This document shows, one piece after another, positions 37,389-60,331 of a stretch of DNA of 64,000 nucleotides (its first letter is position 1; the number at the start of each line of letters is the position of its first letter). Origin of the DNA: a phage; the sequence record PZ179883.1; one strand, written 5' to 3'. A program made the position numbers and the translations under genes. The notes below the pieces were generated by a model that was given only the letters and a program-made list of their open reading frames with translations, was not told the DNA's origin and made no database searches.

Positions 37389-37437
37389 TTTTTGTATCTC
37401 CGGGTTGTTTGTTTCAGTTCATTTAGTTGATAGTTGT

Positions 37438-37466
37438 ATAGTACCACAGTATGCTTTGGTTGTAAA
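37438..37466 (-). promoter_or_regulatory. early promoter (T4-type sigma-70)
   Basis: Minus strand: GGTTTACA, 17 nt, TGGTACTAT; directly after the terminator at 37498..37528. Confidence 0.55.
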
Positions 37467-37497
37467 CCGTTTTGTGAAAAAATTTTAAAATAAAAAA

Positions 37498-37528
37498 AGG
37501 GAGAGCCGAGGCTCTCCCTAAAATTACT
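37498..37528 (-). terminator. rho-independent terminator
   Basis: Minus strand GGGAGAGC-CUCG-GCUCUCCC followed by UUUUUUUAUUUU; after ORF 37524..37673. Confidence 0.65.
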
Positions 37529-37673
37529 GCATGACTGTGATAACTGTCATGATAACGCGTTGAATTCCGAACGCAAGAAGACCTCCTGCTACGGCTGGAA
37601 CAACACCTAAACCCGCCAGTAAAATGCTACCAGATACTAATGCCGCGCTTGTAATACCTATGAATGGACTCAT
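37524..37673 (-). CDS. small hydrophobic membrane peptide
   Basis: 49-aa ORF MSPFIGITSAALVSGSILLAGLGVVPAVAGGLL..., ATGA overlap with gene 52 stop; strong terminator right after. Confidence 0.4.
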   Translation of the reverse strand: MSPFIGITSAALVSGSILLAGLGVVPAVAGGLLAFGIQRVIMTVITVMQ

Positions 37674-38998
37674 TTGATTTCCTCTAAATCTTTAGTGTAT
37701 TCTGTAACTACATCAGTAGTTTTCCAATATTCGTTTTCTTCTTTTTTGGCTTTAGCTTCTTCAGCAAGTTTCTTTGCTTCGTCGGAAGTCATATGAAAAA
37801 TGTTCATTCCAACTAGTTTATCAACATAAGAAGAATACATATCAATTTTAGAAAGTTCTTCGGTCAGTTCTTTGCGAGTTTTACCTTGTACAACAATTTC
37901 ACCTGAAATTACTTTCTTAATGAAATGTGCCTTGGCAAAAGCTAAACGAAATGCTGATTCAGTTTCTTTGATTTTGTTATCAATTCGTTTTTGGACATAA
38001 GTTTTACGAACTTCAACGAAGTCTTTGATTAAATTAACTACATTATCGTAAACTTGCAGCTTTCCTTTCTCATTAATGACGGTAATATTCTGGGAACGAC
38101 GCTCAATCAACCCGAAGTCTTTCATAATTTTTGCATGGCGTTCTTCTTCATTATCGCTCAAAGAGTATTCTTTTCGGAATTTAACTTTGAAGCCAAAGCC
38201 ATGCTCACCACAAGCATCATCCCATGTAATGAAGCCTTTATCTTCAAGCGGGTCTAAGATTTTACTCACATAAGTTTCACGATCATACTTATATGGAATC
38301 TCAGTGATATGCATTTGAGTTCGTGAAGTAAACTTATATGTTCCACGAATTTCATATTGCCCATCAATTTCAACGACTTCACCACGAAATTCTGGGAATT
38401 CTACCTTCGGTTTAGTTACTTTCTTTCCTTGAAGAGCTTGCAGTACAGCTTTCTTGACAGAAGAAACACTATGAGGAAGAATGTAAGTTGCATAACCAGT
38501 TGCAATACCGGAAACGCCATTAAGAAGAACAGTAGGAATAATAGGCAAATAGAAAGCAGGCGGAATGTGTTCTTTATCTTGATGTACTGGAGCATATTCA
38601 GTATCTTTATATACGTTATAGAAATTTTTACTTACACGAGCAAAAATATAACGACTTGCTGCTGCCTTTTGGACAGTACGAGAACCAAAGTTTCCTTGAC
38701 CGTCTAACAGAGGAAAGTTATTATTCCAAGTGTTAGCCATCAAAGCACCTGCGTCTTGTGCAGAGTTTTCACCATGATGATATCCAAGGTCCGCTACACC
38801 GCCTGCGATAGAAGCGAGTTTGTGAAACTTATCTTTATTTCCTCGTGCCAAATCAAGAGCTCGAGCAATAACAAATCGTTGAACTGGCTTAAATCCGTCA
38901 ATCATATTTGGAATGGCACGATTTTCAACCGTGTACATAGCATAAGCCAATGCTTCATTATCAATGATACTTTTTAAATCACGATTATTCAGTTGCAT
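37670..38998 (-). CDS. 52: DNA topoisomerase II medium subunit gp52 (GyrA-like)
   Basis: 442-aa ORF with the catalytic-tyrosine region; matches T4 gp52. Confidence 0.92.
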   Translation of the reverse strand: MQLNNRDLKSIIDNEALAYAMYTVENRAIPNMIDGFKPVQRFVIARALDLARGNKDKFHKLASIAGGVADLGYHHGENSAQDAGALMANTWNNNFPLLDGQGNFGSRTVQKAAASRYIFARVSKNFYNVYKDTEYAPVHQDKEHIPPAFYLPIIPTVLLNGVSGIATGYATYILPHSVSSVKKAVLQALQGKKVTKPKVEFPEFRGEVVEIDGQYEIRGTYKFTSRTQMHITEIPYKYDRETYVSKILDPLEDKGFITWDDACGEHGFGFKVKFRKEYSLSDNEEERHAKIMKDFGLIERRSQNITVINEKGKLQVYDNVVNLIKDFVEVRKTYVQKRIDNKIKETESAFRLAFAKAHFIKKVISGEIVVQGKTRKELTEELSKIDMYSSYVDKLVGMNIFHMTSDEAKKLAEEAKAKKEENEYWKTTDVVTEYTKDLEEIK

Positions 38999-39002
38999 AA
39001 AT

Positions 39003-39143
39003 TTACCATACTAGTGAATGTAGTGCCATAATAACATCAGAAATGAAAAGCACGACTTGAATTAATCCGAACATTATTCCGTAATATAATGCTATCAATA
39101 AAATAGCAAGGGCTAATGAATAGCCCAAGATTTTCTTAATCAT
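39003..39143 (-). CDS. small hydrophobic membrane peptide
   Basis: 46-aa ORF MIKKILGYSLALAILLIALYYGIMFGL..., hand-translated. Confidence 0.35.
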   Translation of the reverse strand: MIKKILGYSLALAILLIALYYGIMFGLIQVVLFISDVIMALHSLVW

Positions 39144-57949: not shown

Positions 57950-58159
57950 TTAAATTACATGACTATTTATAATAAATTCTTGCGGAACGTTAAAATACCC
58001 AATTTTAGTTAATATAACAACATCACCGTTAATAATTACCGGAGAATAATCGGCTGGAGCATTAAACTTCCAATGAGCTCTAATATTATATCCATCAGAA
58101 CCAAATGCTCAACTAGCCGGTCTCCCGGCTTTTTGCCATGCATAAAAATCAAATTTCAT
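57950..58159 (-). pseudogene. 68-codon ORF interrupted by an in-frame TGA (possible pseudogene or recoding site)
   Basis: Hand translation: MKFDFYAWQKAGRPAS-TGA-AFGSDGYNIRAHWKFNAPADYSPVIINGDVVVILTKIGYFNVPQEFIINSHVI; no Met after the stop. Confidence 0.35.
57963..57970 (-). promoter_or_regulatory. late promoter TATAAATA for soc
   Basis: Minus-strand TATAAATA about 29 nt upstream of the soc ATG. Confidence 0.6.
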
Positions 58160-58356
58160 TTTGAATGCTCTATAATTAATTTTAAGGCTTCTTCATGCAC
58201 CTTACCTAATTGTATATGTCCAGTTTTAATTGTGTAAGCTTTGTGGAGCTGATTAGATAGGAGCTCGTATGTGAGCTCCTTGTCATAATTTTTAAATAGC
58301 TGGTCAATACGTTTCTTGTGGGCTTTCTTAAGTTGACGTTTATTTAAACGAGCCAT
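58156..58356 (-). CDS. hypothetical basic protein
   Basis: 66-aa Lys-rich ORF immediately downstream of gene 56. Confidence 0.45.
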   Translation of the reverse strand: MARLNKRQLKKAHKKRIDQLFKNYDKELTYELLSNQLHKAYTIKTGHIQLGKVHEEALKLIIEHSK

Positions 58357-58871
58357 TAATAACCTCGGTCTTGACGAGCGAAGTTTTCAGCATTTTTCAG
58401 ATAATAAAGTTTAAAGATTTCTTCAGCCGTAAGACCGAGACCTTGGAACATGTTCAGAACGAAATGAAGAATATCAATCATTTCGAATTTAATTTCCAAC
58501 TGGTCTTGTGGAGACAAATCAGTAATCAGAGTTTCACGACGTTCACCATGCTGCGACTTCCAAGGCTTCCATACAGCAGATGCATCTTTTTCACCATTGC
58601 TCATACCACCAAGAGAAGTCAGAAGTTCACGGAATTCATCATCAATGTAATCTTTCTGATTACGCAGCCAATCAACAACTTCACCCGCAGTAGCCAAATC
58701 ATCAGGATGACGGTTATATTCAGGTTTATCTTTAGCTAAACGAACCTGTAGAGATTTCTGCATATCAAGCATAACCTGCAGCGGGTCTTTTTCATCACCG
58801 AGAATATCCCAGTATTCATTTTGAGCTTTATCAGCGCCTTCGATCAGTTGACTACATTCGTTAAAGTAAGC
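58356..58871 (-). CDS. 56: dCTPase/dUTPase gp56 (MazG-like)
   Basis: Start at MAYFNECSQLIEG with AAGGA RBS; matches T4 gp56. Confidence 0.85.
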   Translation of the reverse strand, partial: AYFNECSQLIEGADKAQNEYWDILGDEKDPLQVMLDMQKSLQVRLAKDKPEYNRHPDDLATAGEVVDWLRNQKDYIDDEFRELLTSLGGMSNGEKDASAVWKPWKSQHGERRETLITDLSPQDQLEIKFEMIDILHFVLNMFQGLGLTAEEIFKLYYLKNAENFARQDRGY

Positions 58872-58934
58872 CATTATTTTTCCTTTCAATTCATTAATAA
58901 GTTAAATAATTATATCATTTGAGTATGTAAGCAA

Positions 58935-59714
58935 TTAATTAAAAATATATACTTCATCAGTTCCATTCTTTTCTTTGGAATGATATATGTTAAAGACGTA
59001 TTTTTTATTAAGATGCTTAACATTATATTTTTTAGACCATTCTTTAAGAAGAGTGTTTTCCTTTCCGTGATGCTCTAAAACATTCGACAGTCCAAATTTT
59101 ATTCCTCTGTCATTTAAAGAATCTAAAAGATTTAAAAGGTCTTTTTCTTCTTCTTCTGACCAAAATTTATTATAATCAGCAACTGTTATAAGATATGGAG
59201 GGTCCACATATACAAAATCGCCGTCTAGAATTTTGACATCTTTAAAATGCAATGAACTAAAGATTATTTTATCACAATTTTGTTTAAAGTGATTAAAGCG
59301 TTTTTCACTATTTTTGTTTATAGTTCTTTTTCCAAACGGAGTAGTAAAATTTCCTTTATCGTTTATACGAATCATATTACTAAACCCGTGAAAATGAAGA
59401 ACATAAAGTAAAAGAGGATCTCTAGTTTTATTATAATCTTCACGTAATTTCAAAAACTCTTCTTTTGATGTTTTTGATAGTTTGTATTGCTTTATTACTT
59501 TTAAAACGTCATCCCATGATACATTAATAAGACGCTTATACATTTCAATAATTGGTTCTTGAATATCATTGGCCAATACAGGACCATTGACGTTCAAAGA
59601 CACTGATAAACCTCCACAAAATAAATCCACGAATCTGTCATATTTTGGAAAATGAGGCTTAAGTTCAGGTAATAATGACTGTTTATTACCTGTATACGCG
59701 ATAGCTCCTAGCAT
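58935..59714 (-). CDS. dam: DNA adenine methyltransferase (GATC-specific Dam)
   Basis: 259-aa ORF with FCGG AdoMet-binding motif and DPPY catalytic motif; matches T4 Dam. Confidence 0.9.
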
Positions 59715-60274
59715 TATATTCTCTCATTTATTGCAGCAAAAAACGAATTATATAATTCTTCATCATATGTATTTGATAGTAATACTAACACGTTTTGTGA
59801 TTTAGCATATTCATTAAACCTTGCTTGGATGGTTGGATTATCAGTAAATGATTCTCTTTTTGTCCATTTATTACGTGGATAATATCCGCATGGCAAAAAA
59901 TCTAATATCATCAATGACACAGGGTTTTCAGTTTTTGTGTATTCTTTTAATTTCTCTTTATCTTCTAAATATATTCCAACCGAATCAATAGCTGTACCTC
60001 CACCAACTTGGTGTTTAATTTCAATTATATGCTTTTTACCGTTGCGAGAAATAACAATATCAAATCTTCTAGTACGCTTCTTAGTTATAAAATTAGAACA
60101 AAACAAATTATTTGATTTTTCAGTATCATCGGTTAAAACCATTTTTTCTTGATAACTAACTGAACAATCAGTGAAATATTCTTTTACTTTATTAAGTATG
60201 AAATTTTCAACTACGGCAGATATTTTATATGAATCTCCGTTTAAAGCCATTTCATGCACAATTTTATTAATCAT
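59714..60274 (-). CDS. hypothetical protein with PD-(D/E)xK-nuclease-like motif
   Basis: 186-aa ORF with GAGGA RBS and its own early-promoter motif; [19 protein letters not shown] has the D ... ExK spacing. Confidence 0.5.
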
Positions 60275-60302
60275 TATATCATCCTCAGCAATTTATTTTA
60301 TA

Positions 60303-60331
60303 ATACCATAACAAGCTGAGAAAGTAAACAA
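60303..60331 (-). promoter_or_regulatory. early promoter upstream of the 186-aa nuclease-like ORF
   Basis: Minus strand: GTTTACT, 17 nt, TGGTATTAT. Confidence 0.5.

Follow-up and report, generated by a model that had tools for sequence, protein, structure and literature searches.

The window analysed here is a 64,000-nucleotide (nt) stretch of phage DNA (sequence record PZ179883.1) whose sequence marks its source as a coliphage of the T4 type, collinear with T4 between genes 30 and 41, and our subject is a promoter-like module that recurs 22 times along it. In a megablast search, positions 37000–45000 (rIIA, rIIB, topoisomerase, denB and ndd) matched 917 phage records, headed by Escherichia and Yersinia Tequatrovirus at 97–99% identity. 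By blastn the whole window aligns collinearly with T4 (AF158101) at 83–97% identity, interrupted by 18 indels or replacements, over a T4 span running from 125,954 (alt.1/30) through the 168,903/1 junction to 21,622 (gene 41). Minus-strand genes at 1–24 kb and 34–64 kb enclose a block of plus-strand late tail-fibre genes at 24–34 kb, a layout with which the GC skew is consistent. All 22 sites lie on the minus strand, in gaps between minus-strand open reading frames (ORFs) orthologous to T4 early genes, and none lies within the tail-fibre block (Table 1).

An earlier note, made from the sequence alone, had described, under positions 37437–60331, a 29-bp early-promoter module occurring at least 13 times. 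The repeats are real, but the core is 30 bp long (7+17+6), the sites extend from 3937 to 62990, and nine had been overlooked (low ends 3937, 11066, 34474, 37093, 48854, 49444, 57619, 62458 and 62961). Twelve of the 13 low ends it gave are exact (4328, 7742, 19488, 20485, 23786, 37438, 40579, 41092, 45372, 50552, 54179 and 55514), while 60303 should be 60300. The string GTTTACW-N17-TAYTAT has 10 matches in the window against 0.04 expected, and GTTTACW-N17-TATWAT has eight against 0.01 expected, all on the minus strand; the looser GTTTACW-N16/17-TAnnnT matches 21 times on the minus strand and not once on the plus strand. The 22nd site, at 48854–48883, was added by a weight matrix and has ATATACA instead of GTTTACA, a variant that T4 carries in the same place, at 6630. 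A regular-expression match to ATTTAC at 36534, within motA, had a low matrix score and was dismissed as chance.

The weight matrix comprised two blocks, one of the -35 with the 20 nt upstream of it and one of the TGn extension with the -10. Its scores are bimodal: the 22 minus-strand sites lie at 23.6–44 bits and the runners-up at 6.5 bits on the minus strand and 3.6 bits on the plus strand. Leave-one-out scores are all at least 12.7 bits. Columns that played no part in choosing the sites (the UP region and TGn) score a mean of +9.7 against -19.6 ± 8.8 at random positions, and the module is therefore larger than its 30-bp core.

The consensus of the 22 sites is aaaA..ttt.A.A.A.ttGTTTACat-(11 free)-taTG.TAttATA. 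The -35 is GTTTAC[AT] in all sites but the ATATACA variant, 20 sites have a 17-nt spacer and two a 16-nt one, and the -10 is TACTAT (7), TATTAT (6), TATAAT (4), TATAGT (3), TATGAT (1) or TAGTAT (1). The trinucleotide TGG, said earlier to precede the -10 often, does so at 10 of the 22 sites, and its general form, TGn, at 19. Across the 16 nt before the -35 the A/T fraction is 0.76–1.0 in most columns and near 0.5 in three, against a background of 0.645, with conserved A residues forming the pattern 'A.A.A.tt'.

Downstream of the predicted start, at about +5 to +15 on the minus strand, a leader segment cTATCAAcTAA is partly conserved (promoters with high ends at 37467, 41121, 20514, 19517, 40608, 34503, 37121 and 48883), and similar 'TATCAAC' or 'TCAATCAAC' segments also occur in distant T4-like phages. 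The promoters at 37467, 41121 and 20514 match one another from -30 to +15, and a 53-nt copy of the alc promoter core (11066–11095), 96% identical, lies at T4 123,041–123,093, upstream of alt.-3, which makes some of these promoters recent duplicates of each other.

The sites are tightly fitted between genes. All but one of the 22 have the stop codon of the preceding gene between 1 nt inside the -35 and 71 nt before it, and at ten it is no more than 7 nt away; at the promoter 45372–45401, whose leave-one-out score is the lowest of all (12.7 bits), the topoisomerase gene ends in a stop codon directly adjoining the -35. On the other side, a ribosome-binding site (RBS) and ATG follow 19–43 nt past the predicted start at 18 sites, and mapping T4's annotated start codons onto the window suggests leaders of 25, 30 and 38 nt for asiA, srd and motB. 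Strong intrinsic terminators lie 15–31 nt upstream of four sites, with T-runs that run into the A/T-rich UP region, in line with the earlier remark that several promoters come right after strong terminators; a fifth, weaker candidate is at 60411–60386. The same note had placed three promoters within over-extended ORFs, and this holds: the ORF at 40794..41156 (120 amino acids, aa) overruns promoter 41092–41121, the one at 40437..40685 (82 aa, TTG start) overruns 40579–40608, and the open frame 20552–20214 overruns 20485–20514. Each of the three frames has an RBS-preceded ATG just downstream of its promoter. For annotation, the promoters correct start codons of small early genes, delimit transcription units and mark cassette boundaries.

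Nineteen of the 22 sites have a positional orthologue in T4 that keeps the motif, ahead of dmd, sp, mrh.2, modB, srd, motB.2, motB, cef, rIIA.1, ndd.6, ndd.4, motA, asiA, rnh, frd.3, alc, cd.2, 30.8 and 30.7. Lists of T4 promoters were reportedly given by Wilkens and Rueger in 1994 and by Miller et al. in 2003, both cited in Hinton 2010. The T4 GenBank record AF158101 has no promoter features beyond a note naming an early promoter Pe133295, between cd.2 and cd.3. Counting 7 nt on from the end of the -10 in the T4 cd.2 site leads to 133,295, the number in that name, and the same count at the T4 rnh site leads to 150,727, the left edge of the published map of Pe148.6 (PMC6024815), a promoter detected in T4 by primer extension 1 min after infection (Patterson-West et al. 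2018; PMC6024815). The expectation of transcript starts 6–8 nt past the -10 is thus exact at the two T4 sites where it could be checked. The site at 50552..50581 is probably the orthologue of T4 'P8.1' (T4 predicted start 8182), a match of names that we infer.

Together these observations indicate that the repeats represent a T4-like phage's set of early promoters (Pe), dependent on sigma-70, a reading to which we assign a probability of about 0.95 and which bears out the earlier proposal of early promoters with a GTTTAC(A/T) -35, a 17-nt spacer and a TAnnAT -10, with T4 orthologues and published consensus in agreement. T4 early promoters have been described as 'uber UP/-35/TGn/-10' promoters for the unmodified sigma-70 holoenzyme, some of which are further stimulated by Alt ADP-ribosylation of alpha Arg265 (Hinton 2010; PMC2988021). 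By analogy, unmodified Escherichia coli RNA polymerase holoenzyme would recognise the UP, -35, TGn and -10 elements of the window sites jointly, the alpha C-terminal domains contacting the A/T-rich UP element, with G-TTTAC-A/T as the -35 and TAnnAT 17 bp downstream as the -10, and transcription would start about 7 nt past the -10. Each promoter would share its intergenic gap with the end signal of the upstream gene, which would be either a canonical terminator, its T-run merging into the UP element, or a hairpin formed between spacer and leader.

T4 middle promoters, which depend on MotA and AsiA, also use a sigma-70 -10 and have TGn in about half of cases (PMC2988021), and middle transcripts likewise reach several downstream genes. 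Middle promoters have a MotA box centred at -30 instead of the -35, however, whereas GTTTACW stands here at the 17-bp spacing (21 of 22 sites); the MotA-box string TGCTT, as given in PMC4122927, was not seen when the site alignment was read through, although no direct search for it was made. The motif also differs from the consensus of the gp55-dependent late promoters, TATAAATA, and the T4 orthologues carry Pe names. We therefore regard a middle or late class as almost certainly wrong.

Several points weigh against an early-promoter identity. A generic sigma-70 scan was not enriched relative to shuffled sequence anywhere in the window (75 against 80 expected, 69 against 73, 91 against 89 and 52 against 56), which places the signal in the T4-specific form of the motif; such a scan is unsuited to locating these promoters, for which the T4-specific matrix is required. 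The sites with high ends at 45401, 23815 and 49473 are weakest in the leave-one-out test (12.7–15.8 bits), three sites lack TGn, and that at 48883 has the non-consensus -35 ATATACA; some of these low-scoring or variant sites may be poor or inactive promoters. Finally, while the motif, its statistics and gene context, the T4 orthologues and the co-evolution of the hairpins discussed below are direct observations, the activity and timing of the promoters in this phage are predicted from sequence and orthology, and the roles given below to the hairpins are interpretation.

The motif is that of T4 early promoters, which the host RNA polymerase uses in the opening minutes of infection, and of a published composite, the promoter-early stem-loop (PeSL), and the finding is therefore already known. 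PeSLs were first described in RB49/phi1 (Arbiol et al. 2010; PMC2839356), and Comeau, Arbiol and Krisch 2014 (PMC4122927) give those of PST/T4 as an AT-rich region, TTTACW-N17-TAYWAT, a stem-loop, an RBS and ATG. The present result correctly rediscovers promoters of a class familiar since the 1980s and a cassette described in 2010 and 2014; as such it adds no new biology, and some fresh value attaches only to the co-evolution of the spacer-leader hairpins.

In the window, cores of 46 nt around the -10 fold with a mean of -9.3 kcal/mol against -5.4 kcal/mol for random minus-strand windows (P < 5e-5), and at 11 sites a helix of -12 kcal/mol or stronger is predicted across the -10, its 5' arm formed by the spacer and its 3' arm by the leader. 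Four sites have an upstream terminator, these 11 have a hairpin across the -10 and seven have neither. The 3' arm takes in the RBS at six sites (high ends 60329, 55543, 50581, 40608, 11095 and, more weakly, 4357).

To test these structures beyond the window, we drew on 63 loci from T4-like phages, taken from the surroundings of motB.2, dda and cd, which yielded 303 motif matches, 102 of them non-redundant. The spacer pairs with the leader in 78% of the 102, and the mean pairing energy is -12.5 kcal/mol with the promoter's own leader against -7.3 kcal/mol with swapped leaders (standard deviation of the swapped means 0.22). Mean fold energy is -13.0 kcal/mol for the promoters and -8.2 kcal/mol for 600 control initiation regions without a promoter. 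In 33 promoters the RBS is paired with the spacer, in 47 a hairpin across the -10 leaves the RBS free, and 22 show neither. Between orthologous promoters the hairpin can be kept while the arm sequences are wholly different: at motB.2 the window pairs TCCTCGGT with ACTGAGGA and another lineage pairs TTCTCCTCATG with CATGAGGAGAA, and the alc and 30.7 promoter families hold many co-varying arm variants. Among the 30.8 promoters, of which the one in the window instead follows a terminator, own and swapped energies do not differ (-7.6 and -7.2 kcal/mol). RNAalifold predicted no pairs when 20 orthologues of the alc promoter were aligned with MAFFT, since the 3' arms are out of register there, and the pairing energies of own and swapped leaders were used instead. 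A bias towards the sense strand was considered as a possible sign of selection at the RNA level, but the asymmetry of the cores (1.76 kcal/mol) is no different from that of control initiation regions (1.24 kcal/mol; P = 0.39); it is therefore compositional, and the argument was dropped.

In our reading, selection would maintain the hairpin for its effect in read-through RNA arriving from upstream, where it would mark the end of the preceding gene, as an attenuator or 3' stabiliser, or mask the next RBS, or do both. For the former role, in keeping with the view of the PeSL authors, it can be said that the hairpins start a few nt past the upstream stop codon (median distance from stop to -35, 2 nt) and that a strong core hairpin occurs in two of the 19 promoters with a canonical upstream terminator against 56 of the 83 without one (Fisher P = 1e-5). 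One RB49 stem-loop, moreover, reduced lacZ expression to the same extent as the rrnB T1 terminator (PMC2839356). Against it, a U-tract follows none of the 102 core hairpins, so they were rejected as canonical intrinsic terminators, and early transcripts of T4 are well known to continue into the genes beyond (PMC2988021). We give attenuation, termination or 3'-end stabilisation for the upstream gene close to, though short of, even odds.

The latter role would make the spacer an anti-Shine-Dalgarno arm: transcripts from the gene's own promoter, which lack the 5' arm, would be translated, and expression of the gene would come solely or chiefly from its own immediate-early transcript, or would occur only when coupled to upstream translation. 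The RBS pairs with the spacer in 33 of the 102 promoters compared with 103 of the 600 control initiation regions, and CTCC or CCTC occurs in 19 of the 102 spacers against 4.3% of random 17-mers, in 17 of the 19 at one spacer position, right after the -35. Further evidence is that the arms of orthologous motB.2, alc and 30.7 promoters change together between lineages; for alc and 30.7, spacers pair with their own leaders at -16.0 and -18.6 kcal/mol and with leaders swapped among orthologues at -9.0 and -9.6 kcal/mol. T4 e, soc, 49 and I-TevI offer proof of this principle, there with late promoters within the 5' arm (PMC3014915). However, the 47 of 102 hairpins that cross the -10 and leave the RBS free mean that masking cannot be the general function, all the hairpin structures are predictions, and the strand-asymmetry comparison described above does not distinguish promoters from controls. 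We thus consider RBS masking possible, but would sooner bet against it.

Some of this is on record: PMC2839356 reports RB49/phi1 PeSL stem-loops 'between the -35 and -10 or overlapping the -10'. In the accessible parts of the PeSL literature (Arbiol 2010, Comeau 2014) we found no description of spacer-RBS pairing or of arm co-variation, and RBS masking in connection with early promoters was likewise not found there or in reviews, a search that did not cover the older T4 literature. The extent of the hairpins among relatives of T4 proper, the anti-Shine-Dalgarno spacer and the arm co-variation may be new. We tentatively propose, at less than even confidence, that the 'variable' spacer of early promoters across T4-like phages is under selection as a hairpin arm, which in about one third of cases would be anti-Shine-Dalgarno and render read-through RNA silent for the gene. 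If true, expression of genes such as alc, modB, motB.2 and ndd.4 would be confined to the first minutes; a functional hairpin would add post-transcriptional gating of immediate-early genes and would explain why the sequence from -35 to -10 is not free to drift.

The cassettes also bear on gene exchange. Of the 18 indels or replacements relative to T4, five have an edge that falls within a promoter cassette, where 1.3 would be expected (P ~0.008), an enrichment that is confounded because the edges of whole-gene indels and the promoters are both intergenic. A cassette bounded by two early promoters and absent from T4 illustrates the pattern: T4's motA promoter and terminator here precede an inserted 75-aa ORF (PHROG 10955, unknown function), a different promoter at 37093–37121 serves motA, and the leaders of the two flanking promoters have TATCAAnTAAATGAACTGAAAC in common. 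This arrangement fits the PeSL exchange model. One could go further and regard the cassette as mainly a recombination linker for PeSL shuffling, its promoter sequence kept as homology and transcription secondary; the five indel edges and the 323-bp insert between promoters with a common leader point that way, as do the mini-circles between PeSLs demonstrated in RB49/phi1 (PMC2839356). Yet the conserved positions are those contacted by RNA polymerase (UP, -35, TGn and -10) at the correct spacing while other spacer positions vary, and the edge enrichment is subject to the confounding just described, which leaves a mainly recombinational role highly improbable. The promoter and linker roles are compatible with each other.

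The PHROG families into which the cargo ORFs fall have no known function. Among these ORFs, the 186-aa ORF at 59714–60274 (minus strand) adjoins the dam methyltransferase gene; it falls in PHROG 8706 (unknown function), and its match to the DpnII restriction endonuclease family scores under the Pfam cut-off (16.8 against 23 bits). Elsewhere in the window, 65 nt (window 45736–45801; the 607-codon frame ends at 45401) stand in place of T4 positions 2793–3911, a segment with the gene 60 translational-bypass region, 60.1, mobA and the end of gene 39, and the large topoisomerase subunit for this reason appears to be one unsplit gene without the bypass element. The T4 nrdB intron with I-TevIII, mobE and segG are missing (window 13215/13218, 13882–13938 and 21558–21594). 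The td region aligns with T4 over its full length, yet an Rfam scan of the window at gathering thresholds gave no matches, there or elsewhere.

Table 1. Predicted early promoters, intrinsic terminators, hairpins and inserted cassette in the window. Promoters are given as -35, spacer length and -10, followed by the TGn trinucleotide.
Feature	Position	Strand	Details
Early promoter, dmd orthologue downstream	62961..62990	-	GTTTACA-N17-TATAGT, TGG; T4 predicted start 20576
Early promoter, sp orthologue downstream	62458..62487	-	GTTTACT-N17-TACTAT, no TGn; no hairpin
Early promoter of 186-aa ORF 60274-59714, which T4 lacks	60300..60329	-	GTTTACT-N17-TATTAT, TGG
Early promoter, mrh.2 orthologue downstream	57619..57648	-	GTTTACT-N17-TATAAT, TGG; 15 nt past terminator 57684-57663
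Early promoter, modB downstream	55514..55543	-	GTTTACT-N17-TATGAT, TGA
Early promoter, srd downstream	54179..54208	-	GTTTACA-N17-TATAGT, TGT; no hairpin
Early promoter, motB.2 downstream	50552..50581	-	GTTTACT-N17-TATTAT, TGG
Early promoter, motB downstream	49444..49473	-	GTTTACA-N17-TATAAT, no TGn
Variant early promoter, cef downstream	48854..48883	-	ATATACA-N17-TACTAT, TGG; 112-nt leader
Early promoter, rIIA.1 downstream	45372..45401	-	GTTTACT-N17-TATAAT, TGG
Early promoter after denB, of 87-aa ORF 41057-40794	41092..41121	-	GTTTACA-N17-TACTAT, TGG
Early promoter, ndd.4 orthologue downstream	40579..40608	-	GTTTACA-N17-TACTAT, TGG
Early promoter of 75-aa ORF 37388-37161, T4 motA-promoter orthologue	37438..37467	-	GTTTACA-N17-TACTAT, TGG; 31 nt past terminator 37519-37498
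Second early promoter, of motA, absent from T4	37093..37121	-	GTTTACT-N16-TATTAT, TGA
Early promoter, asiA downstream	34474..34503	-	GTTTACA-N17-TATTAT, TGA
Early promoter, rnh downstream, T4 Pe148.6 orthologue	23786..23815	-	GTTTACT-N17-TATAAT, no TGn
Early promoter, frd.3 downstream	20485..20514	-	GTTTACA-N17-TACTAT, TGG; 31 nt past gene 32 terminator
Early promoter, frd.1 downstream, segment replaced relative to T4	19488..19517	-	GTTTACA-N17-TACTAT, TGA
Early promoter, alc downstream	11066..11095	-	GTTTACA-N17-TATAGT, TGT
Early promoter of inserted 175-aa ORF, T4 Pe133295 orthologue	7742..7771	-	GTTTACT-N17-TATTAT, TGA
Early promoter, 30.8 downstream	4328..4357	-	GTTTACA-N17-TAGTAT, TGA; 29 nt past terminator 4407-4386
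Early promoter, 30.7 downstream	3937..3965	-	GTTTACT-N16-TATTAT, TGA
Intrinsic terminator	57663..57684	-	directly upstream of promoter 57619-57648
Intrinsic terminator	37498..37519	-	9 pairs, then TTTTTTTATTTT; T-run joins UP element of 37438-37467
Intrinsic terminator (gene 32)	20545..20563	-	directly upstream of promoter 20485-20514
Intrinsic terminator	4386..4407	-	directly upstream of promoter 4328-4357
Hairpin, dmd promoter	62948-62983	-	15 pairs, spans -10
Hairpin, promoter of 186-aa ORF	60282-60322	-	pairs spacer with RBS
Hairpin, modB promoter	55480-55523	-	-10, RBS and ATG inside
Hairpin, motB.2 promoter	50532-50574	-	-23.7 kcal/mol; spacer TCCTCGG pairs with RBS
Hairpin, motB promoter	49431-49465	-	spans -10
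Hairpin, cef promoter	48835-48877	-	-20.2 kcal/mol
Hairpin, ndd.4 promoter	40554-40598	-	-22.7 kcal/mol; masks RBS
Hairpin, frd.1 promoter	19483-19508	-	9 pairs, spans -10
Hairpin, alc promoter	11039-11089	-	-26.5 kcal/mol; masks RBS
Hairpin, Pe133295-orthologue promoter	7733-7760	-	spans -10
Hairpin, 30.7 promoter	3925-3957	-	14 pairs, spans -10
Cassette absent from T4, one 75-aa ORF	37101..37424	-	323 bp; bounded by two early promoters

Compared with known systems, the window sites are like the T4 early promoters in (G)TTTAC(A/T), the 17-bp spacer, TGn, TAnnAT, the A/T-rich UP element and the downstream genes, with no difference in kind, although those at 60300–60329, 37093–37121 and 19488–19517 stand in cassettes that T4 lacks or has replaced. 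With the PeSLs of PST/T4 they share an identical consensus, TTTACW-N17-TAYWAT, and the succession of AT-rich region, early promoter, stem-loop, RBS and ATG, as well as the possibility of G-T pairs in the stem-loops and perhaps the association with indels. There the stem-loops are placed 'just upstream' of the promoter, an arrangement found here at four of the 22 sites, whereas the stem-loop across the -10 described for RB49/phi1 is the arrangement of the 11 sites with a core hairpin. The strong promoters rrnB P1, T7 A1 and lambda PL serve the same holoenzyme through these four recognition elements, identically spaced, but have TTGACA where the window has TTTACA with a conserved G before it, and conservation in the window reaches further upstream and into the leader (cTATCAAcTAA). 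The closest parallel to the putative masking hairpins is found in T4 e, soc, 49 and I-TevI, where the promoter lies in the 5' arm and the RBS in the 3' arm, so that long transcripts are masked and short ones open (PMC3014915); in those genes the promoters are late and expression is delayed, whereas here an early promoter in the same position would restrict expression to the first minutes.

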